DNA of 64,000 bases from Chloroflexi bacterium CSP1-4. Its GTDB lineage: Bacteria > Chloroflexota > Limnocylindria > Limnocylindrales > CSP1-4. Within the stretch, counting starts at the first letter, position 1; each line of letters opens with the position of its first letter. The notes under the pieces are model-generated. The model had not been told where the DNA came from and searched no databases. It saw only the letters and a list, made by a program, of their open reading frames with translations. A program made the translations under genes and the position numbers. Shown here piece after piece: positions 3,341 to 38,799 of the stretch. The DNA lies in NCBI GenBank assembly GCA_001443375.1, contig LDXM01000012.1:2089-66088 (forward strand), in the 5' to 3' direction.

Positions 3341-4288
3341 CTACCCGGCCTCGACCATCGGCTTCACCTCGGTCACCAGCCGCTCGATCGACTCGATGTC
3401 GTAGGGCGCGGGGTGCTCGGAGATGAAGGCGCGGAAGCCGATGGTCAGGTAGCCGGCCATCGTCTCGGCGACCTGCTCCGGCGTGCCGACGAACCAGGTG
3501 ACGTCGTCGCTGACGTCCTCCATCGGCGTCCGGTTGGCGGCCATCTGCTCCCCCCAGGCGCGCCGCGCCGCCTCGGCGGTGTCGCGGATGACGATCTTGC
3601 AGTTCACCGTGCGCTCGATCGTCTCCGGGTCGCGCCCCACGTCCGCGCAGTGCCGCCGCAGCACGGCGTCCTTGTGGGTCAGCGTCTCCACGGTCCCGCC
3701 CGCGTTCCACTGGTCGCCGTACTTCGCCAGCGTGCGCAGCGTCTTCTTCTCGCCCGTGCCGCCGATCATGATCGGCACGTGCGCCTGGACGGGCCGCGGG
3801 TGGTGGACCAGCTGCTCGGTGTGGTACCGGGGCCCGTGGTGCGTGACCGTCTCGCCGTCGAGCAGGGCGCGGATGATGCCCACCGACTCGTCGAGCCAGT
3901 CGAGCCGCTGCCCGAAGCCGGAGCCGAAGTCGATGCCGTGGGCGCTGTGCTCCAGCTCCATCCAGGCGCCGCCGAGGCCGCAGATGGCGCGACCGCCGCT
4001 GATGTGGTCGACCGTGGCGATCGACTTGGCCACGAGGCCCGGATTGCGGAACGTGTTGGCGCTGACCATCAGCCCGATCGAGATGCGTTCGGTCATCGCC
4101 GCCCACGCGCCGAGCGTGGTGTAGGCCTCGAAGATCGGCTGGTAGGGGTCGCCGAAGATGGCGTAGAGATGGTCCCACGACCAAAGGCTGTCGTAGCCGA
4201 GCGCCTCGGCTCGGACGGCGATGTCGGCGTAGGCAGGCCAGTCGGTGGCCTGGGACCAGGGCAGCAGCCCGAGCTTTACGATGGTCAT
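3341..4288 (-). CDS. LLM-class (luciferase-like) F420-dependent oxidoreductase
   Basis: 315-aa protein. The N-terminus MTIVKLGLLPWSQATDWPAYADIAVRAEALGYDSLWSWDHL and GGAWMELEHSAHGIDFG are typical of the TIGR03560 luciferase-like monooxygenase family. Confidence 0.8.
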   Translation of the reverse strand: MTIVKLGLLPWSQATDWPAYADIAVRAEALGYDSLWSWDHLYAIFGDPYQPIFEAYTTLGAWAAMTERISIGLMVSANTFRNPGLVAKSIATVDHISGGRAICGLGGAWMELEHSAHGIDFGSGFGQRLDWLDESVGIIRALLDGETVTHHGPRYHTEQLVHHPRPVQAHVPIMIGGTGEKKTLRTLAKYGDQWNAGGTVETLTHKDAVLRRHCADVGRDPETIERTVNCKIVIRDTAEAARRAWGEQMAANRTPMEDVSDDVTWFVGTPEQVAETMAGYLTIGFRAFISEHPAPYDIESIERLVTEVKPMVEAG

Positions 4289-4371: not shown

Positions 4372-5349
4372 TCACGACGATCCCGCCGAGGTGAGCGCGA
4401 TCCTGGTGGCCAGCCGGCGCGCCTCGTCCGGATCGAGCTCACCTGCCCCGGGCACGAGCGCGTTGGCGGCCGCCGCACCGGCGCCCGCGAAGAAGGCGGG
4501 GCCGAGGCCGAGGCCCGCGGCGAGACCGGCGGCCATGCCGGCCAGGAAGGCGTCGCCCGATCCGACCGGATAGCGACCCCGCACCGGGGGCGGACCGAGC
4601 CGAAGCTCGAGCCCCGTCCCGACGAGGACGGAGCCGCTGCTGCCGGCGGTGACCACGGCGTTGCCGGCGCCCCGCTCCACGAGCGCCTGCGCCAGGTCGC
4701 GGATGCCAGCCCCGGGCCCACCGACTGAGTCGGCGCCGAGTGCCTCGGCCGCTTCGGTGGTGTTGACCTTGACCAGCCAGGGATGTTTGGCCAGGGCGGC
4801 CGCGAGGCCCGGCCCGTACGCGTCGACGAGCGTCCGGGCACCCCAAGCGTGAGCCGTGGCCACGACCCGCGCGAAGGCATCGTCGGGCGAGCCGGTGGGC
4901 AGGCCGCCGGAGATGGTGACGATCGTCCCGTCGCCGGTGGCGGCGGCATGGCTCGCGATCGTCTCATCCAGCAGCGCCAGCAGCGCATCCCAATCCCCCG
5001 CGCCCACGGCGGGGCTGGGCTCGTAGATCTCCGTCAGCTCGGCCGTCGCGCGATCAAGGATCGAGACACAGGTCCGGGTTTCGCCGTCGACCCAGGTGAA
5101 GCGGCCGCTCACGCCGATGCCGGTCAGCGCTTCTTGGACCCAACGGCCGGCGTGGCCGGCCAGGAAGCCGATGGCCGTCACCGGGGCGCCGAGCCGGTGC
5201 GCGGCCCGGGCCACGTTCAGTCCCTTGCCGCCGGGCAGCGTGGTCACGGCCACCGGCCGGTGGATCGCCCCGGCCCGCAGCGCCTCGACCTCCTCGAGGC
5301 GGTCGATGGCCGGCGCAGGGGCGACGCAGATCAGCCGGCCACCGCTCAC
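4372..5349 (-). CDS. hexose kinase of the 1-phosphofructokinase family (PfkB superfamily; LacC/FruK-like tagatose-6-P or fructose-1-P kinase)
   Basis: Translation from GTG 5349 is VSGGRLICVAPAPAIDRLEEVEALRAGAIHRPVAVTTLPGGKGLNVARAA...GSGDAFLAGMAAGL. The GTG overlaps the upstream stop as GTGA. The 5' part of track ORF 4372..5772 is an out-of-gene extension. Confidence 0.8.
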   Translation of the reverse strand: MSGGRLICVAPAPAIDRLEEVEALRAGAIHRPVAVTTLPGGKGLNVARAAHRLGAPVTAIGFLAGHAGRWVQEALTGIGVSGRFTWVDGETRTCVSILDRATAELTEIYEPSPAVGAGDWDALLALLDETIASHAAATGDGTIVTISGGLPTGSPDDAFARVVATAHAWGARTLVDAYGPGLAAALAKHPWLVKVNTTEAAEALGADSVGGPGAGIRDLAQALVERGAGNAVVTAGSSGSVLVGTGLELRLGPPPVRGRYPVGSGDAFLAGMAAGLAAGLGLGPAFFAGAGAAAANALVPGAGELDPDEARRLATRIALTSAGSS

Positions 5350-6308
5350 TCCGGCAGGTCTCGTCCGGCGGCGAGCAGGGCCGCGCGCGCCTCCTCGAGC
5401 GTGGGTTGCCCGTCGGTGCCGCCCGCGCGCCGCGTGGACAGGGCGCCACAGGCCACGGCCAGCTCGAGTGCATCCGCCAAGGGCCAGCCTTGCAGGTACC
5501 CGCACAGGAAGCCGGCGTCGAACGAGTCCCCGGCCCCCACCGCGTCGGCCACGGTCACCTGCAGCGCGGCGCTGGTGACTGAGGCGGAGCCGCGCACGGC
5601 GAGAGCGCCCCGGTCGGCCTGCTTGACCACGACGGTCATGCCCTCCGGCCCGACCCCTCGGATCGCCTGTGCCGCGGCCGCGACGTCGCTCGTGCCGCCG
5701 ATCGCCCGTGCCTCGGCCGTGTTGGGCAGGAAGACGTCCGTCAGCGCGAGGATGTCCTGCAGCCCCTGCCACTCCTCGGCGGGGTCCCAGCCCGGGTCGA
5801 GCGAGGTCGTGAGGCCCTCGGCGTGTGCTGCTGCGAAGAGCCCGGGCAGGCCGGGGCGCAGCCGGTCCTGGAGGAACCAGCTGCCGACGTGCAGGTGGCG
5901 CGCCCGCATGAGCAGGGCCCGGGGGACTTCCTCCGCGTGGAGCGACGCCATCGCTCCCGGGGCGGTCAGGATCGCCCGGTCGGCGCCGGTATCGAGGACC
6001 ACGGTCACACCGGTCGGCAGCTCCGGGTCGATGCGGCAGGCGCTCACGTCGATGCCGCGGGCGCGCATCTCGTCGAGCATGAAGCGCCCGAACAGGTCGT
6101 CCCCCACGACGCCCACGAAGGCGGTGCGCAGCCCCAGCCGCGTGGCGCCGCAGGCGGTGATGACCGACGAGCTGCCCACGGCCAGCCGGATGGCGCGCAC
6201 GTACCGCTCCGCCTGCCCGAAGCGTGGCTGCGCGTGGGCGCCGGCGACGATGATGTCCGGGTTGATCTCGCCCACCACGAGCAGCCCGAGGTCGACCGGC
6301 GGCCCCAC
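5346..6308 (-). CDS. PfkB-family carbohydrate kinase (ribokinase-like sugar kinase)
   Basis: The sequence contains GLLVVGEINPDIIV...DTGADRAILTAPGA...GAGDSFDAGFLCGYLQG, the ribokinase signature. The likely start is GTG 6308, 2 nt after the aldolase stop. An alternative ATG at 6377 would overlap the aldolase gene by 67 nt. Confidence 0.75.
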   Translation of the reverse strand: MGPPVDLGLLVVGEINPDIIVAGAHAQPRFGQAERYVRAIRLAVGSSSVITACGATRLGLRTAFVGVVGDDLFGRFMLDEMRARGIDVSACRIDPELPTGVTVVLDTGADRAILTAPGAMASLHAEEVPRALLMRARHLHVGSWFLQDRLRPGLPGLFAAAHAEGLTTSLDPGWDPAEEWQGLQDILALTDVFLPNTAEARAIGGTSDVAAAAQAIRGVGPEGMTVVVKQADRGALAVRGSASVTSAALQVTVADAVGAGDSFDAGFLCGYLQGWPLADALELAVACGALSTRRAGGTDGQPTLEEARAALLAAGRDLPE

Positions 6309-6310
6309 GC

Positions 6311-7279
6311 TCAGTACTCCCGGTACCAGCCGTCGCCCGGCGGCTTCATGGCGGCCAGCCGGCTGGCCGTCTCCCACGGTCGTCCCAGCGCGTCCACGCG
6401 GTCTGCGAGCGCGGCGAGGCGGCGGCGACCCTCGCCGGTGAGGAAGGCATCGCGCTCGGCCGGCGGCATCGTCGCGGCCTGGGCCCAGATGGCGCGTCCC
6501 GCGAGCACGCCGCTGGCGCCGGCGGCGCAGGCGACCTCGACCTGGTGCTCGAACGTCCGCTCGTCCACGCCGCCCGAGAGGAGCACCCAGGGCACGCTCG
6601 AGGCCGCGGTCAGCTCGTCACACGCCTCGCGCCAGCGCTCTTCGTCGGCCACGGCCGCGTCGTAGGGGAACTCGGCCTTGAGGATGTCGCCGCCGATGGC
6701 CGTCAGGCGCCGCGCCGTCTCGATCACGACGCGACGCCGCTCCTCGCCGGTCAGCTTCCCGCCGTCCGCGATCGAGTAGCCCAGCGGCTCCAGGAAGAGT
6801 GGCAGGTCGCTGGCGCGCGCCTCGTCGGCGACGTAGGCCACGAGCGCCTCCTGGGCGGGCGCGTTGACGGCCTGGGGGTGGTAGTAGACGAGCAGCTTGA
6901 CCGCCGACGCGCCCAGCCGCGCCGCCTGCTCCACGCTCCAGCCCTCCAGGAGGCGGCTCTGGCGCGCGGTGGACGGGCCGTCGTAGCCGGTCGCCTCGAC
7001 CGCCACGATGAGGCCCGCCGACGCAGGCAGCGACCCGTCGGCGATGCACTGCGCCGCGCCGATCTCGGGATCGAGCAGGACGCCGGTGGCGGCACCGGCG
7101 AGCGCCCGCACCACGGCGCGCTTGAACTCGACCATCTCCTCGAAGGTCACCGAGGCCGGATCCGCGAGCCGCAGCTCGCGGCGCAGGTTCTGGCGATGAT
7201 CCAGCGCGAGCACGGTGAACGTGCCCCGCGGGGAGGCGCACTGGCGGAGGCCGCGCAGCGTGCCGGGGCGGAACGTCAT
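6311..7279 (-). CDS. class I tagatose-1,6-bisphosphate aldolase-like protein (LacD/DhnA family)
   Basis: 322-aa protein with TFTVLALDHRQNLRREL...KLLVYYHPQA...LLSGGVDERTFEHQVEVACAAGASGVLAGRAIW. It is similar to LacD-type aldolases and is the first gene of the aldolase-kinase-kinase operon. Confidence 0.7.
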   Translation of the reverse strand: MTFRPGTLRGLRQCASPRGTFTVLALDHRQNLRRELRLADPASVTFEEMVEFKRAVVRALAGAATGVLLDPEIGAAQCIADGSLPASAGLIVAVEATGYDGPSTARQSRLLEGWSVEQAARLGASAVKLLVYYHPQAVNAPAQEALVAYVADEARASDLPLFLEPLGYSIADGGKLTGEERRRVVIETARRLTAIGGDILKAEFPYDAAVADEERWREACDELTAASSVPWVLLSGGVDERTFEHQVEVACAAGASGVLAGRAIWAQAATMPPAERDAFLTGEGRRRLAALADRVDALGRPWETASRLAAMKPPGDGWYREY

Positions 7280-7304
7280 GGCGGGATGGTATCATCCGCG
7301 GAGG

Positions 7305-7323
7305 TACGGACGTCCGTATGTCT
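7305..7323. promoter_or_regulatory. perfect 14-bp palindrome TACGGACGTCCGTA plus 5 nt, in the divergent promoter region between the aldolase operon and the GH4 gene; a candidate operator
   Basis: The palindrome was read directly in the sequence. The 15-mer GACGTCCGTATGTCT at 7309..7323 recurs as its reverse complement at 8648..8662. Confidence 0.55.
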
Positions 7324-7333
7324 GGAGGCGCTG

Positions 7334-8629
7334 ATGACCCGGATCGTGCTGATCGGCGCGGGCAGCGTCGAGTTCACGCGCAACCTCCTGGGCGACTTCC
7401 TCTCCTACCCGGAACTGCACGACGCGACGTTCGCCCTCCACGACATCGATGCCGACCGGCTCGCCACGGCCGAGCGCATGGCGCACTGGACCGCCGGCGC
7501 CCTGGGGGCGACCCCGCGCATCGAGGTCCATCTCGACCGCCGCGATGCCCTGCGCGGCGCCGACTTCGTCGTGGACACGATCCAGGTCGGCGGTGCCCGG
7601 GCGACGCAGATCGACTTCGGCGTGCCGGCGCGCCACGGCCTGCGCTACACGATCAACGACACCATCAACATCGGCGGCGTGATGCGCGGCCTGCGCACCA
7701 TCCCGGTCGTGCTCGACATCGTGCGCGACATGGAGGAGCTCTGCCCCGACGCCTGGTTCCTCAACTACACCAACCCCATGTCGATGCTCATCTGGGCCGT
7801 GGCCGAGCGGAGCGACATCCGCACGGTGGGGCTGTGCCACTCCGTCTACTGGACGGTGGACACGATCGGTCGCTACCTGGGCATCCCGCGCGAGGAGATC
7901 GAGCACGTCTCGGCGGGCGTCAACCACCTCGCCTTCCTGCTGCGACTGGAGCATCGCGGCCGCGACCTGTATCCGGACCTGCGCCGCTTCGTGGCCGACG
8001 ACCGGATCCCCCCGGACGACCTGGTGCGCGCGGAGCTGTTCCGGCGCCTGGGCTACTACCCCACCGAGTCCTCCGAGCACCACGCCGAGTACAACCCCTG
8101 GTTCATCCCCAAGGGGGACGCCGTGGAGCGCTTCAACATCCCCATCGGGGAGTACCTCTCGCGCGTGGCCGCGAACCTCGATGAGTACGCGGAGACGAAG
8201 CGCCGGCTCGACGCCGGCGAGCCGTTCGAGATCGAGCGCAGCGGCGAGTACGCCGCGGTCTTCGTCCATGCCCTCCTGACCGGCCAGACGGAACGGATCG
8301 TGGGCAACGTCATGAACCGCGGTTTCGTGGCCAACCTGGATCCGGACGCCTGCGTCGAGGTGCCCTGTCTCGTGGACGGCGGCGGGATCCATCCCCAGAC
8401 CGTGGGCCCCCTGCCGCCCCAGTGCGCCGCGTACATCCGGCCGGCCATCGACGCCCAGCGCCTGACCATCCGTGCGGCGCTCGACGAGGACCGCGACGCC
8501 GTCTACCACGCGGCCATGCAGGACCCGCAGATCCAGGCCCGCCTCTCCCTCGAGGAGACGTGGCGCCTGGTCGACGAGCTGATCGCGGCCGAAGGGGAGT
8601 GGCTGCCGGCGTGGCTCCGCCCCGGTTGA
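7334..8629 (+). CDS. glycoside hydrolase family 4 (NAD+/Mn2+-dependent alpha-glucosidase or alpha-galactosidase-like)
   Basis: The N-terminus MTRIVLIGAGSVEFTRNLLGDF is a Rossmann motif. CHSVYW, GVNHLAFLL and NPWFIPKGD are GH4 hallmarks. A GGAGG RBS lies 6 nt upstream of the ATG at 7334. The long track ORF 6545..8629 carries a 5' antisense extension. Confidence 0.85.
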   Translation: MTRIVLIGAGSVEFTRNLLGDFLSYPELHDATFALHDIDADRLATAERMAHWTAGALGATPRIEVHLDRRDALRGADFVVDTIQVGGARATQIDFGVPARHGLRYTINDTINIGGVMRGLRTIPVVLDIVRDMEELCPDAWFLNYTNPMSMLIWAVAERSDIRTVGLCHSVYWTVDTIGRYLGIPREEIEHVSAGVNHLAFLLRLEHRGRDLYPDLRRFVADDRIPPDDLVRAELFRRLGYYPTESSEHHAEYNPWFIPKGDAVERFNIPIGEYLSRVAANLDEYAETKRRLDAGEPFEIERSGEYAAVFVHALLTGQTERIVGNVMNRGFVANLDPDACVEVPCLVDGGGIHPQTVGPLPPQCAAYIRPAIDAQRLTIRAALDEDRDAVYHAAMQDPQIQARLSLEETWRLVDELIAAEGEWLPAWLRPG

Positions 8630-8647
8630 CAGGCAGGGCTAGGCTGG

Positions 8648-8662
8648 AGACATACGGACGTC
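8648..8662. promoter_or_regulatory. second copy of the 15-mer operator-like motif, between GH4 and the ABC transporter substrate-binding gene
   Basis: AGACATACGGACGTC is the reverse complement of 7309..7323. It shares the core TACGGACGTC. Confidence 0.5.
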
Positions 8663-8708
8663 TGGACAACCTCGGTCACTCACTGACCGGGGCCATGGAG
8701 GAGATGCG

Positions 8709-9992
8709 ATGACCCGGTCCACTGCACGCCTCGGAGCGCTCCGGCGGGTCGCCGGTATCGCGGCGCTCCCGGTGATCCTCGCCTTCGTCGCCGCAGGCTG
8801 CGGCCAGGCCGCGACGACCATCGAGTACTCGATCTGGGGCGACCCGGCCGAGCTGGCCAGCCAGCAGGCGATCGTGGACGCCTTCCACGAGGCCAACCCG
8901 TCGATCACGGTCAAGGTGACCGTCTCGGACTGGGACACCTACTGGGACAAGCTCCAGACGGGCCTGGCCGGCGGCGCAGCGCCGGACGTCTTCGCCATGG
9001 ACGGCCCGCTCTTCCCGGACTTCCAGTCCCGCGGCGTGCTGCTCGACCTGAAGTCGTACGTCGAGAAGGACAAGTACGACCTGACGCAGCTCGCCGACCA
9101 GGGCGTGAAGGACTTCACGACCGCCGACGGCGGCCAGTACGGCCTGCCCCGCGACCTGAACGTGATCGTCCTCTACTACAACAAGGCGATGTTCGACGAG
9201 GCGGGCGTGGCCTACCCGGACGACACCTGGGACTGGGCCAAGCTCGTCGAGGCCGCCCACAAGCTGACCCTCGACAAGGACGGCGACGGCACGACCGACC
9301 AGTGGGGCCTCTACACCGAGACCACGGACATGGAGAACTACTGGTCGTCGCTGGTCTGGCAGAACGGCGGCGACATCATCGCCCCCGACGGCAAGTCGAC
9401 GCTCCTCGGCAGCGAGGAGGCGGTCGGGGGCCTGCAGTTCCTGCAGGACCTGATCTGGAAGGAGAAGGTCGTTCCCGAGCCGGCCCTCTTCGCCGAGACG
9501 GGCGACGCCTTCGAGCAGGGCCAGGCGGCCATGGAGGCCAACGGCTCCTGGCTGGTCCCGACGCTCGAGGCCGCCGGCATCGAGCTGGGCATCGCGCCGC
9601 TGCCGCAGGGTCCGGCCGGCCGGGCGACCTCGGTCAATCCGACCGGCGCCGTCGTCTACAAGGACAGCAAGAACCCCGACGCGGCCTGGCTCTTCGTCAA
9701 GTACCTCGCCAGCCCCGCGGCGCAGGAGAAGCTCATGGCGCTGAAGGCGTCGCTGCCGGTCTCCAAGGAAGTGCTCGCCGGGCCGTACGCGGCATCGTTC
9801 GACGGCGCGCAGGTGTTCGCCGATTCGCTCGCCTATGCGCACCTCAAGCCATCGTTCCTGGGCTACAACGAGTTCACGGCGATCCTCCAGGAGGAGCTTG
9901 ATACCAACGTCTTCAACGAACCGAAGAAGACCGCGCGCGATGCCATCGACACGGTCCTGGCCGAGCTGAACGCCCTCCTGGCGGGTCAGTGA
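8709..9992 (+). CDS. ABC sugar transporter substrate-binding lipoprotein (family 1 extracellular solute-binding protein)
   Basis: The signal peptide has a lipobox (LAFVAAGCGQA). The protein is 427 aa. The motif YSIWGDPAE...WDTYWDKL is typical of carbohydrate-binding SBPs. Confidence 0.85.
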   Translation: MTRSTARLGALRRVAGIAALPVILAFVAAGCGQAATTIEYSIWGDPAELASQQAIVDAFHEANPSITVKVTVSDWDTYWDKLQTGLAGGAAPDVFAMDGPLFPDFQSRGVLLDLKSYVEKDKYDLTQLADQGVKDFTTADGGQYGLPRDLNVIVLYYNKAMFDEAGVAYPDDTWDWAKLVEAAHKLTLDKDGDGTTDQWGLYTETTDMENYWSSLVWQNGGDIIAPDGKSTLLGSEEAVGGLQFLQDLIWKEKVVPEPALFAETGDAFEQGQAAMEANGSWLVPTLEAAGIELGIAPLPQGPAGRATSVNPTGAVVYKDSKNPDAAWLFVKYLASPAAQEKLMALKASLPVSKEVLAGPYAASFDGAQVFADSLAYAHLKPSFLGYNEFTAILQEELDTNVFNEPKKTARDAIDTVLAELNALLAGQ

Positions 9993-10900
9993 CCGTCGGC
10001 CCCGCGAGGGCCCGGCGGCGCACCGGGCCGCTCGCATCGGAGGCCCGCTGGGCCTGGTTCTTCCTGGCCCCGACGATCCTCGGCCTGGTCCTGCTCTCGG
10101 CGGGACCGATCCTGGCCACGCTGGCCATCAGCCTCACGAGCTGGGACCTGCTCCAGGCCCCCCGGCTCGTGGGGCTACAGAACTTCGTCGACCTGCTGGG
10201 CGACGACCGCTTCCTGCACGCGCTGCGCAACACGGTCTTCTACACGGTGACCTCCGTGCCGCTCGGCCTGGCGCTCGCGCTCGGGCTCGCCCTGGCGCTC
10301 AACCGGACGATCCGGGGCATCGCCTGGATCCGCACGGCCTACTTCCTGCCCGTGGTCACCTCGACCGTGGCCATCTCCCTGGTGTGGGCCTGGATCTACA
10401 GCCCCGAGCAGGGCATCCTCAACCAGGTCCTCGGCCTCTTCGGCGTGCCCGCGCAGAGGTGGATCTCGGACCCGTTCTGGGCGATGCCGGCGATCGTGGT
10501 CATGGCCGTCTGGCAGGGCCTCGGGACGAACGTGATCATCTTCCTGGCCGGCCTGCAAGCGATCCCGGAGGAGTACTACGACGCCGCGCAGGTGGACGGC
10601 GCCGGCCGCTGGGGCCGCTTCCGCCACGTCACGCTGCCGATGCTCACCCCGAGCATCTTCTTCACCGGCATCCTGAGCCTGATCGGCAGCTTCCAGGTCT
10701 TCGATCAGGTCTACGTCCTGGCGCGTCCCGGCAGGCCCACCGAGGCCACGACCACGGTGGTCTACTTCATCTACGAGAACGGCTTCCGCAACTTCAAGAT
10801 GGGCTACGCGAGCGCGGCCTCGTGGGTCCTGTTCATGATCGTGGCGCTGCTCACCGCCCTCTACTTCCGCTCCCAATCGCGCTGGGTCCACTACGGCTGA
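9989..10900 (+). CDS. carbohydrate ABC transporter permease (MalF/UgpA-like)
   Basis: 303-aa protein with 6 TM segments and the EAA-like motif region IFLAGLQAIPEEYYDAAQVDGAGRWGRFRHVTLP. It overlaps the SBP gene by 4 nt. Confidence 0.85.
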   Translation: MTVGPARARRRTGPLASEARWAWFFLAPTILGLVLLSAGPILATLAISLTSWDLLQAPRLVGLQNFVDLLGDDRFLHALRNTVFYTVTSVPLGLALALGLALALNRTIRGIAWIRTAYFLPVVTSTVAISLVWAWIYSPEQGILNQVLGLFGVPAQRWISDPFWAMPAIVVMAVWQGLGTNVIIFLAGLQAIPEEYYDAAQVDGAGRWGRFRHVTLPMLTPSIFFTGILSLIGSFQVFDQVYVLARPGRPTEATTTVVYFIYENGFRNFKMGYASAASWVLFMIVALLTALYFRSQSRWVHYG

Positions 10901-10904
10901 GGCG

Positions 10905-11813
10905 ATGGACCAGGCATCCGCCCTAGCCACCCTCGCGCCCCGGCGCCGGCCCCGGCGGCGGCCCTGGGCCCGGATCGGCCGGCGCACGATCGTCTACGCG
11001 CTGCTCATCGCGGGCGGGCTGCTGATGATGGGGCCATTCCTGTGGATGATGGCCACCTCGCTCAAGACGCGCGCCGAGGTCTTCGGCTCGCCGCCGCTCT
11101 CGCTGCCGTCGGGCGCGCACTGGGAGAACTACGCGCGGATGTGGGATGCGCTCCCCTTCTCGACCTTCTTCTTCAACTCGGTGAAGCTGGCCCTGCTCAA
11201 TACGGCCGGCCAGCTCGTCAGCAGCTCGATGGCGGCGTTCGCCTTCGCCACCCTCCAGTTCCGCTTCAAGGGACCGCTCTTCGGGATCCTGCTGGCGACG
11301 CTGATCATCCCCTTCCAAGTCGTGCTGGTGCCGAACTTCATCCTCTACCGCATCCTGCCGCACCCGCTCTCGAGCAGTGGCAACTGGATCAACACGCATG
11401 AGCCGCTGTGGGTCGGGGCGTGGCTGGGCGGCGCCTTCGGCACGTTCCTGCTGCGCCAGTTCTTCCTTACCATCCCGAGGGAGCTGGCCGACGCCGCCCG
11501 GGTGGACGGCGCCAACCCCTTGCGGATCTTCTGGCACGTCTACCTCCCGCTGGCCCGGCCCGCCCTGGCGACGCTCGCGATCTTCACCTTCATGTGGACA
11601 TGGAACGACCTCATCGACCCGCTCATCTACCTGCGCGACACGGAGCTCCAGACGGTGACCGTGGGGCTCTCGCTGTTCAAGGGACAGTTCGTCGGGAAGT
11701 GGCCGGAGATGATGGCCGGGGCGCTGGTCAGCCTGCTGCCGATGATCGTGCTGTTCGTGATCGCACAGAAGCACTTCGTGCGCGGCATCACGCTGAGCGG
11801 CCTGAAGGGCTGA
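10905..11813 (+). CDS. carbohydrate ABC transporter permease (MalG/UgpE-like)
   Basis: 302-aa protein with TM segments and RELADAARVDGANPLRIFWHVYLPLARPAL, an EAA-type permease motif. Confidence 0.85.
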   Translation: MDQASALATLAPRRRPRRRPWARIGRRTIVYALLIAGGLLMMGPFLWMMATSLKTRAEVFGSPPLSLPSGAHWENYARMWDALPFSTFFFNSVKLALLNTAGQLVSSSMAAFAFATLQFRFKGPLFGILLATLIIPFQVVLVPNFILYRILPHPLSSSGNWINTHEPLWVGAWLGGAFGTFLLRQFFLTIPRELADAARVDGANPLRIFWHVYLPLARPALATLAIFTFMWTWNDLIDPLIYLRDTELQTVTVGLSLFKGQFVGKWPEMMAGALVSLLPMIVLFVIAQKHFVRGITLSGLKG

Positions 11814-11820
11814 GGTCAAG

Positions 11821-12549
11821 ATGATCGTCGACGGGGTCCCGCTCTACCGCCAGATCAAGGCCGACCTGCTCGAGCAGATCAAGAGCGGCCAGCTGGCGCC
11901 CGGGGAGCGCATCGAGTCGGAGCTCGAGCTGATGGCGCGCTACGGCGTGAGCCGGGCCACCGTGCGGCAGGCGCTCGGCCAGCTCGTGGCCGAGGGCTAC
12001 CTGGAGATCCGCCGCGGGCTCGGGACGTACGTCGCCACACCCAAGCTGGAGCAGGGGCTGGGCGGCTTCTACTCCTTCAGCCGCGAGATCGAGCGGCTGG
12101 GCATGCGACCGGGCACGCGCGTGCTCGGGGTCCGCCTGGAGCCGGCTACCCGGACGGTGGCGGCGGCCCTGGGGCTGCCCCTGGAGACGCCGGTCGTGGC
12201 GCTGCGACGCCTGCGCCTCGCCGACGACGAGCCGCTGGTGGCCGAGACGAGCTACCTGCCGGCGGCGCGCTTCCCCGGCCTCGCCGAGCGGGACTTCTCC
12301 CGTCGCCGTCTCTACGACACGCTGTTGGCCGACTACGGCGTTCGCCCCGCGCGTGCCCACGAGGTGTTCGAGCCGGTCCTGCTCACGACCGAGGAGGCGT
12401 CGCTGCTGGGCAAGCACCGCGGCGACCCGGCGCTGGTGGTCGAGCGCACGGCCTTCGACACCACGATGCAGCCGATCGAGTTCTGCCGCAGCGTCGTGCG
12501 CAGCGACCGCGTGCGTTACTTCGTCGACCTGGGCGAGGCGCAGGCATGA
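11821..12549 (+). CDS. GntR-family transcriptional regulator of the HutC/UTRA subfamily
   Basis: 242-aa protein. The N-terminal wHTH is LYRQIKADLLEQIKSGQLAPGERIESELELMARYGVSRATVRQALGQLVAEGYL. A UTRA effector-binding domain follows. Confidence 0.85.
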   Translation: MIVDGVPLYRQIKADLLEQIKSGQLAPGERIESELELMARYGVSRATVRQALGQLVAEGYLEIRRGLGTYVATPKLEQGLGGFYSFSREIERLGMRPGTRVLGVRLEPATRTVAAALGLPLETPVVALRRLRLADDEPLVAETSYLPAARFPGLAERDFSRRRLYDTLLADYGVRPARAHEVFEPVLLTTEEASLLGKHRGDPALVVERTAFDTTMQPIEFCRSVVRSDRVRYFVDLGEAQA

Positions 12550-13559
12550 TCGCAGACGCTCGAGCCAGCGTCACCTGGCGCGAGGCGGCGACGAGCGGGG
12601 AGGCGGTGGCGGCAGCCCTGGAGGCAAGCGCGGCCGCGCCCGGGCGGATCGTCGAGTCGCTCCTCTCGGCGGACCTCGTCGTGTTCAGCGGCGCCGGATC
12701 CTCCTACCACCTCGCCCAGGTGGTGGCCTGGACCTACCGCGCGGAGACCGGGCGGCCGGCGATCGCCGTGCCGCTCTCGGAGATCCTGCTGCGGCCGGCG
12801 GGGGTCTTCGGGGCCGGCCCGGAGCGTGCCGTGGCCGTCGTCATCTCGCGCTCGGGCGAGACCTCCGAGGCGGTCGCGGTGGCCGCTCAGCGACGGGCGG
12901 CCGGCGCCGTCACCATCGCCGTCACCTGCCGCGCGGAGAGCCCGCTCGCGTCCCTGGCCACCGAGCGCCTGGTCTCGCCGCTCGGTGACGAGCGTGCGAT
13001 CGTCATGACACGCTCGTTCACGAGCATGCTGGCGCTGCTGCTGGGCATCGTCGGGCGGGGCGCGGTGGGATCGGCGCTCGGCGCAGACCTGGCTCGCCTG
13101 CCGGATCGCTTCGACGCCCTCACTGGCCCGGAGGTCGAGCGGGCGTGGGCTCGGTCGGCCGAGATGTCCTGGTCGCGCATCGTCGTCCTGGGCGGCGGCG
13201 CCACCTTCGGCCTGGCGCACGAGGCCTGCCTGAAGGTGACCGAGACGAGCCAGCTGCCGGCTTCGGCGTATGAACCGCTCGAGTTCCGCCACGGTCCCAT
13301 CTCGGTGTGCGAACCCGGTGTCCTCGTGCTCGGCCTGCCCGGCGGACCGGGCGCTGCCGAGGAGCGCAGGGTCCTCGACGAGTGCGCCGACCTGGGCGCC
13401 TCGACGTGGTGGCTGGACCCGGCCCCGGACCTCTACCATGCCGCCCGACTGCCCCTGCTCCTGCCGCCCATCCAGGCGCTCGCGCTCGGCCTCGCCGCGG
13501 CCCGCGGCCGCGATCCCGACGCGCCCCGCCACCTCTCGCAGGTGGTCGTGCTGGAGTGA
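12546..13559 (+). CDS. SIS-domain sugar-phosphate isomerase/deaminase-like protein (AgaS/GlmS-C-like, double SIS)
   Basis: 337-aa protein. VVFSGAGSSYHLAQV and ISRSGETSEAVAVA are SIS motifs. A second SIS-like half contains VVLGGGATFGLAHEACLKVTETS. The start overlaps the gntR stop as ATGA. Confidence 0.8.
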   Translation: MIADARASVTWREAATSGEAVAAALEASAAAPGRIVESLLSADLVVFSGAGSSYHLAQVVAWTYRAETGRPAIAVPLSEILLRPAGVFGAGPERAVAVVISRSGETSEAVAVAAQRRAAGAVTIAVTCRAESPLASLATERLVSPLGDERAIVMTRSFTSMLALLLGIVGRGAVGSALGADLARLPDRFDALTGPEVERAWARSAEMSWSRIVVLGGGATFGLAHEACLKVTETSQLPASAYEPLEFRHGPISVCEPGVLVLGLPGGPGAAEERRVLDECADLGASTWWLDPAPDLYHAARLPLLLPPIQALALGLAAARGRDPDAPRHLSQVVVLE

Positions 13560-14626
13560 CCGCCGACGAGCTGCGCCTGGCCGACTTCCGGCCGCGCTCG
13601 CGGCTGCGGGTGGCCGCGCACGGGGTGCCCCGGCCGGCCGTACCGGCGATCGATGCCCACAACCACCTCGGTGCGGCGTTCGGCGGCGCCTGGGCCTCCC
13701 GCCCGCCGGACGAGCTGCTGCCGATCCTCGATGAAGCCGGCGTCGAAGCCATCGTCGACCTCGACGGGGGATGGGGCGAGGCGCTCGTGGCGGAGATCGA
13801 GCGCTGGCAGCGGCCGCATCCCGATCGCATCGCCGTCTTCGCCGGCCTCGACTACGAACGCTGGGCCGAGGACGAACGCTTCGGCGAGACCGAGGCCCGA
13901 CGACTCGAGGCGGCGGCCCTGGCGGGGGCTCGGGGCCTGAAGGTCTGGAAGGTGCTCGGGCTTCGGGCGCGCGACACGGTGGGTCGTCTCGTGGCCGTGG
14001 ACGACGCGCGGTTGGACCCGCTGTGGGCTGCGGCTGCTCGGCTGGCGCTGCCGGTCGTCATCCACGTCGCGGACCCGGTCGCCTTCTTCGAGTCCCTGGA
14101 CCCGACCAATGAGCGCTGGGAGGAGCTCCACGCCCACCCCGACTGGCACTTCTGGCCCACGCGGCCGCCGGGACGCCCCGATCTGCCCGGCTTCCCGCCC
14201 TTCGACGAACTGCTGGAGGGGTTGCGCCGGGTACTGCTGCGCCACCCGGTGACGACGTTCATCGGCGCGCACGTGGGTTGCGCCGCCGAGGACCTGGCCT
14301 GGGTGGGGGCGACGCTCGAGGCGTGCCCGAACTTCCACGTGGACATCGCGGCCCGCCTGGGCGAGCTGGGGCGGCAGCCGTACACCGCGCGGGCGTTCTT
14401 CGAGCGCTACGCCGACCGCGTCCTCTTCGGTGTGGACGTCGAGCCGGACCCGGAGGTCTACCGCCGCTACTACCGCTTCCTCGAGACCCGCGACGAGTCC
14501 TTCGATTACGACGCCGACGAGGTGCCCGGGCAGGGCCGCTGGCAGATCCACGGCATCGGGCTGCCCGAGGACGTGCTGCGCCGCGTCTACCGCGACAACG
14601 CCCGGCGGCTCATCTTCGAGCGGTAG
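13556..14626 (+). CDS. amidohydrolase-family (TIM-barrel metal-dependent hydrolase, amidohydrolase-2-like) protein
   Basis: The GTG at 13556 overlaps the SIS stop as GTGA. Translation VTADELRLADFRPRSRL...PAIDAHNHLG contains an HxH metal motif. The downstream sequence HVADPVAF...FIGAHVG is also family-typical. The track ORF starts earlier at 13307 with an Arg/Pro-rich, non-native extension. Confidence 0.75.
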   Translation: MTADELRLADFRPRSRLRVAAHGVPRPAVPAIDAHNHLGAAFGGAWASRPPDELLPILDEAGVEAIVDLDGGWGEALVAEIERWQRPHPDRIAVFAGLDYERWAEDERFGETEARRLEAAALAGARGLKVWKVLGLRARDTVGRLVAVDDARLDPLWAAAARLALPVVIHVADPVAFFESLDPTNERWEELHAHPDWHFWPTRPPGRPDLPGFPPFDELLEGLRRVLLRHPVTTFIGAHVGCAAEDLAWVGATLEACPNFHVDIAARLGELGRQPYTARAFFERYADRVLFGVDVEPDPEVYRRYYRFLETRDESFDYDADEVPGQGRWQIHGIGLPEDVLRRVYRDNARRLIFER

Positions 14627-15026
14627 CGGGCCGCCGCGCGCGGGGGATGACCAGGCGCAGCGCGGTGTGCGTCGGCGAGAACGCGACCACCTTGTTGTCG
14701 ACGAGTCCGGCGGCCTTCGCCGCGCCGATCACGTCCACATCCCGGATGGTCGCCGCCTTGCCCTTGCGCGAGACGACCCAGATGGCGCCGTTCGGCTTCA
14801 GCGCCCGCTCCAGTTCGCCGAGCGAGGCCAGCTCGGCGAGCGAGTCGGCGGCGAGGAAGATGAGGTCCGTCCCAGGCAGCGGCGCCCCATCGGTGATGTC
14901 CTGCGTGTGGGCCTCCAGCGCCGCCCGGAAGTCGGGGTCCGCGACGCCCATCACGGCCACGCGAGCACCCGGGAAGACGCCGAGCTTGTCGATGACCGGC
15001 TTGTCGTAGACGCGCTCCGGGCTCAC
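14610..15026 (-). CDS. DUF3052-domain protein
   Basis: Translation from the GTG at 15026 is [39 protein letters not shown]...IWVVSRKGKAATIRDVDVIGAAKAAGLVDNKVVAFSPTHTALRLV. The GTG overlaps the upstream cyclase stop as GTGA. The remainder of track ORF 14610..15758 is antisense junk. Confidence 0.6.
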   Translation of the reverse strand: MSPERVYDKPVIDKLGVFPGARVAVMGVADPDFRAALEAHTQDITDGAPLPGTDLIFLAADSLAELASLGELERALKPNGAIWVVSRKGKAATIRDVDVIGAAKAAGLVDNKVVAFSPTHTALRLVIPRARRPATARR

Positions 15027-18000: not shown

Positions 18001-18571
18001 TGACGAGGTCTCCGGCGACCATCCCTTCGCCCTGCGCCCCGACCGTGACCGCCGCTTCGCCGGTCAGGACGCCCACCCGCAGCTGCAGCCCGCCGACCGA
18101 GCCGACCTGGAGCGATGGGCCCGCCTCCACCAGGTCGAGGCCGGCCCGCACCGCCCGCTCGGCGTCGTCCTCGTTGGCGATGGGCGCGCCCCAGATGGCC
18201 ATCACGGCATCGCCGATGAATTTCTCGACCGTGCCGCCGTAGCGGCCGATGATTTCGCGCGCGACGTCGAAATAGCGCGAGAGGTACTCGCGAACGTCCT
18301 CTGGGTCGCGATCCTCGGAGGCGGCCGTGAACCCCACCAGGTCGGCGAAGAGGACGGACACCAGGCGGCGCTCCGCCTCCGGGGCCGTCGCGGCGACCCC
18401 CGGGGCGGGCGCCTCCCCCACCGACATCGGCGTTCCGCACTCGCCGCAGAAGCGATCGGCCGGCGGGTTCTCGTGGCCGCACTTCGGGCAAACGGCGGCA
18501 AGGCGCGTGCCGCACTGGCCGCAGAACTTGCGGCCCGGCTCGTTCTCGTGTCCGCAGGTCGTACAGCGCAT
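15023..18571 (-). CDS. multidomain signalling ATPase with an N-terminal double zinc-ribbon, a class III adenylate/guanylate cyclase domain, an AAA (AAA_16/STAND-like) NTPase and C-terminal TPR-like repeats
   Basis: 1182-aa protein. [46 protein letters not shown] is the DZR domain. [15 protein letters not shown]...[11 protein letters not shown] is the CYTH-independent class III cyclase core. [10 protein letters not shown] is the Walker A motif and [11 protein letters not shown] is the Walker B motif. Confidence 0.85.
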
Positions 18572-24083: not shown

Positions 24084-24480
24084 CTCGTCACCGTCCGGCC
24101 AGCTGGCGGACGGGACCTGCTGCTCCGCGCCCGGTCACAGACGGCGATGAGCCCGGCGCGACAGCACGTGGGAAAGGGGAGCCTGCACGTACCGCGGGCG
24201 GCCGATCCTGCCACATCAAACCCACTCCCTTCGAGTGCGGTGCTGATGCGGTTCCTGGCAGCCGGGCGGTCCTTGGCGTTGAGCCCGAGGATCCCTGGCT
24301 TTGCGTCCCCGCCTCTCGACGGGTTTGCCGTACTTCAGACCGATCACGCGGGCGACGGTCGTCGTCGCCTCATGTGACCCAGAGGCTAGGGCCGGGCGTG
24401 CGGGCGGCCAGCCCGACGATGGTACCGGTCGGTGCACCGGTGCACAGCCCATTCGGCGGGGGCGCCAGGCTGTTGCCGGG

Positions 24481-38723: not shown

Positions 38724-38799
38724 TGGTAGGGGAGCCTGGATTCGAACCAGGGACCGGCGGTGTATAAGACCGCTGCTCTAACCGCTGAGCTACTCCCCC
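38724..38799 (-). tRNA. tRNA with anticodon UAU as read (nominally tRNA-Ile(UAU)); 76 nt including the encoded CCA
   Basis: The reverse complement folds as a cloverleaf: GGGGGAG-TA-GCTC-AGCGGTTA-GAGC-A-GCGGT-CTTATAC-ACCGC-CGGTC-CCTGG-TTCGAAT-CCAGG-CTCCCCT-A-CCA. The stems are 7/4/5/5 bp, the T-loop is TTCGAAT, U33 is present, A37 is present, and A73 is the discriminator. Confidence 0.8.

Follow-up and report, generated by a model that had tools for sequence, protein, structure and literature searches.

Positions 4372-14626 of the 64-kb stretch of DNA analysed here (the window) hold a genuine ten-gene, repressor-controlled sugar-utilisation cluster of an uncultured Chloroflexota host (Candidatus Limnocylindria). 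The cluster reads as a variant of the Aga/tagatose-6-P pathway, and we see about an even chance that it serves the cytoplasmic catabolism, by way of tagatose-6-P, of an imported oligosaccharide or glycoside of an alpha-linked aminosugar with galacto configuration.

Third-position GC framing together with Pfam and NCBIfam scans placed ten genes (Table 1) within exactly the boundaries of a preliminary description of this DNA, which counted eleven genes, its own list also holding ten, and assumed a high-GC Gram-positive context where the host belongs to the Chloroflexota. Gene calling by JGI on metagenome contigs of ~100% identity independently yields the same ten products, with lengths of 325, 320, 322, 431, 427, 303, 302, 242, 337 and 356 aa. 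Two PfkB kinases (K1 and K2) and a LacD-type aldolase are encoded on the minus strand, and the remaining seven genes, from the GH4 glycosidase to the PF04909 amidohydrolase, on the plus strand. At four junctions the neighbouring genes share 4 nt (K1/K2, where K1 starts with GTG over the K2 stop, binding protein/permease 1, GntR/SIS and SIS/amidohydrolase), and three junctions have gaps of 2-7 nt (K2/aldolase, permease 1/permease 2 and permease 2/GntR). A 79-bp gap lies ahead of the binding-protein gene, and the divergent intergenic region measures 54 bp. The flanking genes are unrelated, so that the cluster boundaries are sharp.

Table 1. Features of the cluster and its flanks (positions in the window)
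Feature	Position	Strand	Evidence or remark
F420-type LLM oxidoreductase, flank	3341-4288
K1, PfkB kinase, 1-PFK/'hexose kinase' group	4372..5349	-	Pfam PfkB 127 bits
K2, ribokinase/IolC-like PfkB kinase	5346..6308	-	Pfam PfkB 168 bits
Class I DeoC/LacD-type aldolase	6311..7279	-	NF009498 256.7 bits, cut-off 184
TATCAT, possible -10 for GH4 operon	7289..7294	+	read from sequence
Operator 1	7303..7326	.	GGTACGGACGTCCGTATGTCTGGA, in 54-bp divergent region
GH4 NAD+/Mn2+-dependent glycosidase, MelA-type subfamily	7334..8629	+	Glyco_hydro_4 194, Glyco_hydro_4C 183 bits
Operator 2, half-site conserved	8648..8662	+	second exact AGACATACGGACGTC, upstream of binding-protein gene
Extracellular solute-binding protein, CUT1-type sugar ABC importer	8709..9992	+	SBP_bac_1 154 bits
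ABC permease 1, UgpA/MalF-like	9989..10900	+	BPD_transp_1 64 bits
ABC permease 2, UgpE/MalG-like	10905..11813	+	BPD_transp_1 59 bits
HutC-subfamily GntR repressor	11821..12549	+	UTRA 147 bits, GntR 70 bits (Pfam)
Double-SIS, GlmS-isomerase-domain-like protein	12546..13559	+	Pfam/NCBIfam, motifs
PF04909 amidohydrolase-2 family	13556..14626	+	Amidohydro_2 64 bits
DUF3052-like ORF and adenylate cyclase/AAA_16, flank	14610-18571

Operator 1 contains the perfect 14-bp palindrome TACGGACGTCCGTA. Among 28 GntR-type orthologous loci, 22-24 keep the palindrome of the 24-bp operator, GGACATACGGACGTCCGTATGTCC, upstream of their GH4 gene. The exact 15-mer AGACATACGGACGTC, found within Operator 1 at 7309-7323 on the minus strand, occurs twice in the window, both times in intergenic regions of the cluster; Operator 2 is present too in a close relative (L007). 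TATCAT is only tentatively taken as the -10 element of the GH4 operon, since a scan with the strict sigma-70 consensus gave no promoter match; in orthologous loci, TAnnnT elements resembling it closely precede the operator. Without inducer, the HutC-type regulator would occupy the palindromic operator, which overlaps the divergent promoter region, and the second site before the binding-protein gene.

The preliminary description had staked its reading on co-conservation in relatives; the genes are strongly co-conserved, and the layout recurs in dozens of Chloroflexota MAGs. Our comparison set comprised 83 loci with the PF04909 gene, many of them truncated by contig ends; 70-74 of these have permeases, 63 the binding protein, 52 the SIS protein, 49 GH4 and 40 GntR. 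K2 and the aldolase form the most constant pair (47 and 44 loci), K1 is missing from many (present in 32), and in Thermomicrobiales the amidohydrolase is accompanied by ABC genes only; the last two points count against the aminosugar reading. A recurrent family of ~255 aa, a DeoR regulator where scanned (L037, L100), occurs in 16 of the 83 loci, and any further gene family in nine or fewer; in a second architecture DeoR stands in place of GntR. Three closely related loci have a PIG-L deacetylase adjoining K2, besides the amidohydrolase.

The double-SIS protein retains the GlmS-isomerase-type phosphate loop and Glu/Lys/Glu/His catalytic motifs (SRSGETSE at 101-108; E226, K230 and E233 in HEACLKVTE; H249 in EFRHGP), with Gln at what we take to be the position of GlmS Lys603. 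It was described before as AgaS-like, but by score it is no member of the AgaS family (75 bits, cut-off 529); it lies far below the cut-offs of NagB-II (96.5 bits) and GlmD (83) too, and below those of GlmS (85) and FrlB (37.5). These scores and the Gln count against the aminosugar reading. PDB matches include the GlcN6P deaminase 1j5x (91 bits) and the AgaS-like 3c3j (62 bits). AgaS is the GalN-6-P deaminase of E. coli (PMC3668189), and we propose that the double-SIS protein acts as a GalN-6-P deaminase/isomerase yielding tagatose-6-P. In the second architecture a different GlmS-C-like SIS (29% identity), next to the DeoR regulator, replaces that of the window, and in loci where GH4 and the amidohydrolase are fused a NagB/AgaI-like PF01182 protein holds the SIS position; these swaps point to deamination of an aminosugar-6-P. 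In one related locus (L097), ABC genes and a pair of GH4 genes occur together with an AgaR-like DeoR regulator, a SIS protein and two kinases, of the 1-PFK and ROK types.

The aldolase exceeds the cut-off of NF009498, the NCBIfam tagatose-1,6-bisphosphate aldolase subfamily, in agreement with its earlier description as LacD-like, and stays far below that of the LacD equivalog (94 bits, cut-off 432). The Schiff-base Lys of LacD (DVLKVE) has its aligned counterpart in K201 (DILKAEF), and the Glu of YLEIL in E164 (FLEPL); PDB matches are the DUF2090 protein 8tnf (140 bits), LacD (114) and YihT (91). We propose that it is a tagatose-1,6-bisphosphate aldolase. K1, the putative tagatose-6-P 1-kinase, reaches 215.7 bits against TIGR03168 (cut-off 216.4) and 102-112 bits against LacC equivalogs (cut-offs 410-469); its top PDB match is the tagatose-6-P kinase 2awd (125 bits), but its profile scores for 1-phosphofructokinase lie slightly above those for LacC, which counts against the tagatose-6-P reading. 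K2, the candidate 6-kinase of the free sugar (galactosamine), has ribokinase and YdjH as top PDB matches and is below cut-off in NCBIfam throughout (IolC_N 137, ribokinase 113, TagKinase 112.5 bits). Here too gene swaps are informative: a GatZ/KbaZ-like protein replaces K1 and the aldolase in L001 (554 bits), which shares the LLM flank, and in L065 (525 bits), where it accompanies K2, and this points to tagatose-6-P. L076 has a match 55% identical to that GatZ (by tblastn only).

GH4 scores 570.5 bits over its full length against the 'alpha-galactosidase' model NF011657 (cut-off 486), carries the motifs GAGS (8-11), NYTNPM (144-149), GLCHS (166-170) and GVNH (195-198), and has no signal peptide. 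We propose that it is an exo-alpha-galactosaminidase/galactosidase, although by profile score it is a plain MelA-type alpha-galactosidase, which counts against an aminosugar substrate, and we know of no GH4 enzyme acting on aminosugars. Of the ABC importer described earlier, the binding protein and the two permeases were recovered, but the ten genes of 4372-14626 include no ATPase gene. In the PDB, the binding protein comes closest to the oligosaccharide-binding proteins Lmo0181 (154 bits) and AbnE (138 bits).

The amidohydrolase likewise proved to be one, but of PF04909 and not of the NagA/AgaA (Amidohydro_1) family. It has neither an NCBIfam match nor a PDB sequence match, and a fold search with a moderate-quality model (pLDDT 73.8) returned only remote relatives (TM about 0.5, 16% identity). 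Across Chloroflexota it is 68-75% identical, and its invariant HxH (H35, H37), H170, H239 and D294 would fit a metal site. In other lineages it is fused to GH4 in a single protein of 799-827 aa (P0246 and L090-L093), and relatives with signal peptides are fused to CBM9, GH172 or GDSL domains. These secreted relatives indicate that the family acts on unphosphorylated glycans and, together with the GH4 fusions, link the enzyme to GH4 and not to the phosphosugar steps. That it is a de-N-acetylase acting with GH4 is our weakest inference.

An ordinary cluster for alpha-galactosides of the melibiose, raffinose or galactinol type, in which GH4 would release galactose, K2 would form galactose-6-P and the SIS protein, as an aldose-ketose isomerase, tagatose-6-P for K1 and the aldolase, would suit the GH4 score, the weak top NCBIfam match of the binding protein to a galacto-oligosaccharide binder and, equally well, the lower pathway. 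We consider it unlikely, because it leaves the universally linked PF04909 enzyme without a role and does not account for the NagB/AgaI-like deaminase of the fusion loci, nor for the AgaR-like regulators and Sph3-family neighbours of related loci; moreover, to our knowledge, the characterised GlmS-C-type double-SIS enzymes all handle a C2/C1 amine and no galactose 6-kinase is known in the family of K2. Slightly less probable is a gluco-configured substrate (alpha-GlcN/GlcNAc oligomers or GlcN-inositol-type glycosides), cleaved, phosphorylated and deaminated by a NagB-II/GlmD-like SIS to fructose-6-P, then converted to FBP and cleaved. The top matches of the SIS protein are indeed GlcN-6-P deaminases, K1 scores higher with 1-PFK and PfkB models than with LacC, and LacD-type aldolases also cleave FBP; however, fructose-6-P would need no dedicated kinase and aldolase, their replacement by GatZ/KbaZ-like proteins favours tagatose-6-P, and GH4 belongs to the galactosidase-type subfamily (175 bits for AglA-type glucosidase, cut-off 650).

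The aminosugar core might also be right and the PF04909 enzyme be no deacetylase, acting instead on another acyl or ester substituent, on a lactone or oxidised end, or in a hydration or isomerisation coupled to the 3-keto chemistry of GH4. The known chemistry of the family comprises decarboxylases, hydratases and lactonases, with no deacetylase that we know of, and the fold matches agree; the GDSL esterase, GH172 and CBM9 fusions would fit a general glycan-decoration enzyme, and the lineage with PIG-L has a deacetylase besides the amidohydrolase. Yet de-N-acetylation is the sole step of a GalNAc/GalN route for which the cluster offers no other candidate, genes of the NagA/AgaA type do not recur among the 83 loci, and PIG-L, confined to its three loci, may be unrelated, so that we hold this variant to be improbable. 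An Amadori/fructosamine (Frl-like) or a sulfoquinovose (sulfo-EMP-like) pathway, each with GntR, ABC and PfkB components plus either a deglycase of the SIS type or an aldolase of the YihT type, is disfavoured and very unlikely. Our cluster and the frlBONMD set have GntR/HutC, ABC transport, SIS and PfkB in common, but FrlB and FrlD models give only 37.5 and 78 bits, and neither a glycosidase nor a second kinase nor an aldolase fits into the Frl route. The aldolase does match YihT/SFP aldolases (91 bits), but LacD and DUF2090 proteins outscore them, and genes for a sulfoquinovose isomerase, a sulfolactaldehyde reductase/dehydrogenase and a sulfonate exporter are absent from the cluster. Neither pathway accounts for the NagB-like and GatZ-like swaps.

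Co-conservation, the operator, the SIS motifs, the NF009498 match and the swaps support the pathway logic of the preliminary description, the substrate being read from context. In the aminosugar pathway that we infer, from substrate to specificities and step order, an oligosaccharide would enter through the CUT1-type importer, energised by an ATPase encoded elsewhere. The PF04909 enzyme, whose reaction is above all conjectural, and GH4 would act jointly on the unphosphorylated sugar, the former most likely stripping N-acetyl groups and the latter freeing the terminal alpha-linked residue as galactosamine by NAD+/Mn2+-dependent oxidation-elimination. K2 would convert this to GalN-6-P, the SIS protein would deaminate and isomerise it to tagatose-6-P and ammonium, K1 would form tagatose-1,6-bisphosphate, and the aldolase would cleave the latter to DHAP and glyceraldehyde-3-P.

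In one fusion locus (L091), a pair of Spherulin4 (Sph3/GH135-family) proteins is encoded, of which one has an fn3 domain. Two points count against this link to a polymer: it is confined to one lineage, in which the fused proteins share only 45-50% identity with those of the window, and no endo-acting polymer hydrolase was found in the Chloroflexota loci or the window. Sph3, the founding member of that family, cleaves alpha-1,4-GalNAc polymers. Pel consists of an alpha-1,4 GalN-GalNAc repeat (PMC9135694). From this context, the likeliest substrates of the cluster would be alpha-1,4-GalN/GalNAc fragments derived from exopolysaccharides of the Pel or galactosaminogalactan type.

Because the window has a GC content of about 72%, genes were placed by third-position GC, and their families were assigned by Pfam and NCBIfam profile scans. 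The sugar cluster proposed in the preliminary description at 4372-14626 is real, and gene framing together with the profile scans places its boundaries exactly there; it contains ten genes rather than the eleven first counted. JGI gene calls on metagenome contigs about 100% identical to the window give the same ten products. Adjacent genes overlap by 4 nt at four junctions and are 2-7 nt apart at three, the wider gaps being 79 bp 5' of the binding-protein gene and a 54-bp divergent region. Genes on both flanks are unrelated to the sugar cluster.

Features of the window; the last column gives occurrence among 83 related loci chosen by the presence of a PF04909 gene, many of which end at contig ends
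Feature	Position	Strand	Basis or context	Loci of 83
DUF5317 + MFS_3/MFS_1 transporter fusion, 691 aa	1103-3178	-		
K1, PfkB kinase, 1-PFK/hexose-kinase group	4372-5349	-	profile scan	32
K2, ribokinase/IolC-like PfkB kinase	5346-6308	-	profile scan	47
ALD, DeoC/LacD-type class I aldolase	6311-7279	-	profile scan	44
AGACATACGGACGTC, copy 1	7309-7323	-	directly 5' of GH4 ribosome-binding site	
GH4 glycosidase	7334-8629	+	profile scan	49
AGACATACGGACGTC, copy 2	8648-8662	+	5' of binding-protein gene	
SBP, SBP_bac_1 binding protein	8709-9992	+	profile scan	63
P1 and P2, ABC permeases	9989-10900 and 10905-11813	+	profile scan	70-74
GntR + UTRA (HutC-type) regulator	11821-12549	+	profile scan	40
SIS, double-SIS protein	12546-13559	+	profile scan	52
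AH2, Amidohydro_2 (PF04909)	13556-14626	+	profile scan	
DUF3052-like small ORF	14610-15026	-		
Double zinc ribbon, adenylate/guanylate cyclase and AAA_16 domain protein, 1182 aa	15023-18571	-		
c-di-GMP-I riboswitch aptamer	24254-24339	-	63.4 bits, gathering score 35	
tRNA-Ile, anticodon TAT	38724-38799	-	ARAGORN; Rfam tRNA, 71 bits	

The table also lists features outside the cluster. The DUF3052-like ORF precedes the cyclase gene, and at its 3' side it shares 17 nt with the end of the amidohydrolase gene, stop codon included; the same arrangement is found in three related loci (L004-L006). A tRNA-Ile with a UAU anticodon is uncommon in bacteria, where AUA is usually read by a lysidine-modified CAU tRNA.

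The preliminary description took the host for a high-GC Gram-positive. Among genomes, a Candidatus Limnocylindria MAG matches the window best: eight of the ten genes are 92-97% identical at the amino-acid level, and the binding protein and the two permeases about 75-78%. Relatives of the amidohydrolase AH2 occur in at least 572 species genomes of GTDB, and nearly all of the best 80 are MAGs of Chloroflexota (Limnocylindrales, Chloroflexia, Thermomicrobiales, Anaerolineae and Caldilineae). These matches place the host in Chloroflexota, and an actinobacterial origin was rejected. The neighbourhood survey called for earlier found the cluster genes to be co-conserved across the 83 PF04909 loci. 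A fourth recurrent family of about 255 aa, present in 16 of these, is a DeoR regulator in the two loci where it was scanned (L037 and L100), and no further gene family occurs in more than nine. Two main architectures were found: GH4-SBP-P1-P2-GntR-SIS-AH2, with ALD-K2-K1 either upstream and divergent or downstream, and K1-K2-ALD divergent from DeoR-SIS'-GH4-SBP-P1-P2-AH2. The best conserved protein of the set is AH2 (68-75% identity, against 53-62% for SIS and 42-51% for K1).

The binding protein and two MalF/MalG-type permeases of a putative CUT1 importer are present, and profile scans of the ten genes found no ATPase gene within the cluster. We presume that the ATPase is encoded elsewhere and shared among transporters, as is common for the CUT1 type; in one related locus (L100) a MalK-like ATPase gene lies 3' of the permeases.

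The aldolase exceeds the cut-off of the tagatose-1,6-bisphosphate aldolase subfamily (NF009498, 256.7 vs 184 bits), and in alignment with LacD its K201 matches the Schiff-base Lys and its E164 the catalytic Glu; it is LacD-like to this extent, but falls below the strict LacD equivalog cut-off (TIGR01232, 94 vs 432 bits). Its closest structural relative is the DUF2090 protein 8tnf (PDB), for which our literature search found no paper; the DUF2090 literature ties the family only to inositol catabolism, through an IolJ-like aldolase. K1 is borderline for the 1-PFK hexose-kinase subfamily (TIGR03168, 215.7 vs 216.4 bits) and scores 102-112 bits against LacC models with cut-offs of 410-469, its best PDB match being a tagatose-6-P kinase (LacC) structure, 2awd. 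K2 is a generic ribokinase-family kinase by its NCBIfam and PDB matches. Locus L001 has the LLM flank, K2 and the entire plus-strand operon in common with the window, with a GatZ/KbaZ-like protein in place of K1 and the aldolase; K2 is likewise paired with GatZ in locus L065, and a 55%-identical match to this GatZ was found in a third locus, L076, by tblastn only. Because K1 with the aldolase and the GatZ-like replacement would both act on tagatose-6-P, the exchange identifies this compound as the predicted central intermediate of the pathway.

A second exchange bears on the preceding step. The protein SIS, described at first as AgaS-like, has the double-SIS fold of the GlmS isomerase type, with PF01380 matches over two stretches, a phosphate loop SRSGETSE (101-108), the E..K..E motif HEACLKVTE (225-233) and EFRHGP (246-251) with the ring-opening His, but it is not a member of the AgaS family (TIGR02815, 75 bits, cut-off 529.2) and falls short of the cut-offs for the GlcN-6-P deaminases NagB-II (96.5 vs 430 bits) and GlmD (82.9 vs 580 bits) and for the fructoselysine-6-P deglycase FrlB (37.5 vs 430 bits). 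It is about equally distant from NagB-II, GlmS, GlmD and AgaS (75-96 bits) and much further from FrlB. A Gln occupies the position equivalent to GlmS Lys603. At best, these comparisons suggest that SIS functions like AgaS. Across related loci the SIS position is occupied in three ways, by the type found in the window, by a different GlmS-C-like SIS (29% identity) accompanied by a DeoR regulator, and, in loci with a GH4-AH2 fusion, by a NagB/AgaI-like PF01182 protein; the predicted activity common to all three is aminosugar-6-P deamination. Another locus, L097, encodes an AgaR-like DeoR regulator, a SIS, a 1-PFK kinase, a ROK kinase, ABC genes and two GH4 genes. The non-orthologous pairs AgaS/AgaI and NagB1/NagB2 are known (PMC5583593), and AgaS has been shown genetically to be the GalN-6-P deaminase of E. 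coli (PMC3668189).

The NAD-dependent GH4 glycosidase was correctly recognized from the start: both GH4 domains are full length (PF02056, 194 bits; PF11975, 183 bits), the NAD/Mn2+ motifs GAGS, NYTNPM, GLCHS and GVNH are present, and there is no signal peptide. Over residues 1-428 the protein exceeds the cut-off for MelA-type alpha-galactosidases (NF011657/PRK15076, 570.5 vs 486 bits). To our knowledge, no exo-alpha-galactosaminidase specificity has been described in GH4. Since GH4 homologues 44% or less identical to this one never have AH2 nearby, the linkage to AH2 is specific to one GH4 subclade.

AH2 is a PF04909 protein (64 bits, gathering threshold 26.4) in which the metal-ligand residues H35 and H37 (HxH), H170, H239 and D294 are invariant. 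PF04909 was its sole match; it matched neither PF01979 nor the models of NagA/AgaA (Amidohydro_1, CE9), and NCBIfam and PDB sequence searches returned nothing. With its AlphaFold model (pLDDT 73.8), Foldseek found only remote PF04909 decarboxylases and hydratases (TM about 0.5), and the sequence and fold searches do not discriminate between functions. In P0246 and L090-L093 GH4 and AH2 form a single polypeptide of 799-827 aa; downstream of the fusion gene lie genes for permeases, a binding protein, ROK regulators and a PfkB kinase, and the NagB-like gene of the SIS exchange. Other relatives, 45-50% identical to AH2, carry signal peptides or membrane anchors and are fused to CBM9, DUF2961/GH172 or GDSL-esterase domains; because of these export signals and fusions, the AH2 family probably acts on unphosphorylated glycans, with no need of a nucleotide cofactor. 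Secreted PF04909-CBM9 proteins of about 600 aa form a large conserved family in Pirellulales, Phycisphaerae and Sedimentisphaerales (P0245, P0258, P0391-P0509 from Planctomycetota, and L087-L089, again 45-50% identical to AH2), and no recurrent neighbours of their genes were seen in Planctomycetota.

The amidohydrolase had been put forward as a possible deacetylase. It is not of the NagA/AgaA kind, and we know of no deacetylase in PF04909; we retain a de-N-acetylase role, which has a little under an even chance and is the weakest step of our model, because the route needs that activity and the cluster has no other candidate. Two further observations count against it: in Thermomicrobiales AH2 is accompanied by ABC genes alone, and in one lineage a PIG-L deacetylase gene lies nearby. 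In that lineage (L053, L055, L056, L059, L061, L063, L069 and L071; for example L063, 4058-5113 and 3324-4022) an adenosine-deaminase-like gene (TIGR01430, 209 bits, cut-off 216.6) separates K2 from a different ABC transporter, after which comes the PF04909 gene; three of the eight loci also encode the BshB1-like PIG-L protein in this region, and there is no GH4 gene. We did not count the adenosine-deaminase-like and PIG-L genes as pathway members, since only closely related loci have them and their presence is probably a coincidence.

The regulator has a GntR helix-turn-helix (70 bits) and a UTRA domain (147 bits), as in HutC. Inside the divergent region lies the perfect palindrome TACGGACGTCCGTA, and the exact 15-mer AGACATACGGACGTC has only two copies in the 64-kb window, the chance expectation of one given 15-mer being about 1e-4 in 128 kb (both strands; our calculation). 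Among 28 GntR-type orthologous loci, 22-24 keep the full 24-bp palindrome GGACATACGGACGTCCGTATGTCC 5' of GH4, mostly right after a TAnnnT element. The palindrome looks like a HutC-type repressor operator spanning a divergent promoter, and binding of the repressor is predicted; as the palindrome pattern fits such an operator, it argues for joint control of both transcription units. A scan of this 72% GC sequence for consensus sigma-70 promoters and terminators gave nothing useful.

Together, we infer the substrate and all enzyme specificities as follows. An alpha-linked, galacto-configured aminosugar oligosaccharide would be imported and turned into free galactosamine in the cytoplasm by AH2 and GH4; K2 would phosphorylate galactosamine to GalN-6-P, SIS would convert this to tagatose-6-P and ammonium, and K1 and the aldolase would carry tagatose-6-P to triose phosphates, with both transcription units governed by the HutC-type repressor. 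We give this overall model, catabolism of such oligosaccharides via tagatose-6-P, an even chance of being correct. That the same pathway operates with AH2 catalysing some other reaction seems unlikely. A plain alpha-galactoside operon, in which neutral galactose would be converted to tagatose-6-P, is improbable to a similar degree, as it leaves AH2 without explanation and is at odds with the NagB-like exchange at the SIS position. The GatZ exchange and the GH4 subfamily assignment are in turn at odds with a gluco-configured version ending in fructose-6-P, which we consider rather improbable. Frl-type and sulfoquinovose-type (sulfo-EMP) pathways were rejected, since profile scores are against them and required genes are missing; even taken together they are very improbable.

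The most plausible natural substrates of the galactosamine route would be alpha-1,4-GalN/GalNAc fragments of Pel or galactosaminogalactan. At the end of the fusion locus L091 are two genes of the Spherulin4 family, one with an fn3 domain; the enzyme on which this family was founded, Sph3 (GH135), cuts galactosaminogalactan within its alpha-1,4-GalNAc stretches. In a search of the window and all fetched loci, Spherulin4/GH135 homologues were found in L091 only. Locus L065 (Anaerolineales) encodes, between GH4 and K2, a secreted right-handed beta-helix protein of 522 aa (Beta_helix/DUF1565, 11838-13406), which may serve this locus as the enzyme that cleaves the polymer; the same search found homologues of it in L065 only. 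Pel and fungal galactosaminogalactan are major cationic polysaccharides of biofilm matrices, and we know of no bacterial catabolic pathway described for either. Pel is a GalN-GalNAc repeat (PMC9135694), and endo-galactosaminidases producing alpha-1,4-GalN/GalNAc fragments are known (PMC12054363).

From GalN-6-P on, the proposed chemistry is that of the Aga/Gam system of E. coli and its non-PTS Shewanella variant (AgaK, AgaA, AgaS, tagatose-6-P kinase, AgaY/KbaY-KbaZ), where a double-SIS deaminase/isomerase also yields tagatose-6-P for phosphorylation and aldol cleavage; the GatZ/KbaZ-like proteins of sister loci are a further likeness. The cluster differs in having an ABC transporter in place of a PTS, in a PfkB-type kinase, a SIS outside the AgaS family, a class I LacD-type aldolase instead of class II AgaY, a PF04909 enzyme in place of the AgaA/NagA (Amidohydro_1) deacetylase, and its Chloroflexota host; the GH4 glycosidase at its front, also foreign to Aga/Gam, suggests a glycoside rather than a monosaccharide as substrate. 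With Gram-positive LacABCD it shares a LacC-like PfkB kinase and a LacD-like class I aldolase with its catalytic residues kept, both far below the equivalog cut-offs, but it lacks the LacAB galactose-6-P isomerase, PTS and phospho-beta-galactosidase.

MelA-type operons with CUT1 importers, such as melREDCA of B. subtilis, have a GH4 of the same NCBIfam subfamily beside a binding protein and two permeases; they have no SIS, PF04909, PfkB or aldolase genes, and their galactose enters the Leloir pathway. The archaeal chitin pathway of Thermococcus employs an oligosaccharide deacetylase, an exo-glucosaminidase, a sugar kinase and the SIS deaminase GlmD. Its order of steps resembles the proposed route, in that an N-acetylated oligomer is imported, deacetylated at the oligosaccharide level and cleaved, and the free aminosugar is phosphorylated and then deaminated by a GlmS-C-like SIS, but its substrates are beta-linked and gluco-configured, its product is fructose-6-P, and its deacetylase and glycosidase are of PIG-L and GH35-like type. 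In Agrobacterium tumefaciens, a tagatose kinase and a GatZ-like tagatose-6-P 4-epimerase reportedly form a route (Wichelecki et al. 2015). L001 and L065 similarly pair a ribokinase-family kinase, the K2 orthologue, with a stand-alone GatZ/KbaZ-like protein, whereas the window has K1 and the aldolase; the A. tumefaciens route is fed by polyol dehydrogenases, the cluster by GH4, SIS and the amidohydrolase.

The lower pathway chemistry is already known; what is new is the front end (ABC importer, GH4, PF04909 enzyme and PfkB kinase), along with the host phylum and the pairing of regulator and operator. Our literature searches turned up no paper on such a set of genes, on a galactosaminidase in GH4 or on a carbohydrate deacetylase in PF04909. 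A wider proposal, tentative and on balance doubtful, is that AH2 founds a family of de-N-acetylases or of enzymes that remove other glycan decorations, which would rank as a new carbohydrate-esterase family, and that it is paired with a subclade of GH4 exo-alpha-galactosaminidases; together they would feed very abundant uncultured Chloroflexota of soil and freshwater on Pel and galactosaminogalactan. The operator/repressor pair is directly suited to in vitro inducer screening. If the model is wrong, what remains is a sugar operon that is clearly delimited and conserved in many loci, with one enzyme without an assigned role. If it is true, alpha-linked galactosamine glycans, among them Pel and fungal galactosaminogalactan, would have their first complete catabolic route, leading from uptake down to triose phosphates. 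The model would predict a new GH4 specificity and give a large subfamily of PF04909 without a characterized member (475 clusters at 50% identity, E<1e-30) a function that can be tested. Candidatus Limnocylindria and related Chloroflexota, abundant but uncultured, would gain a concrete, regulated carbohydrate pathway.
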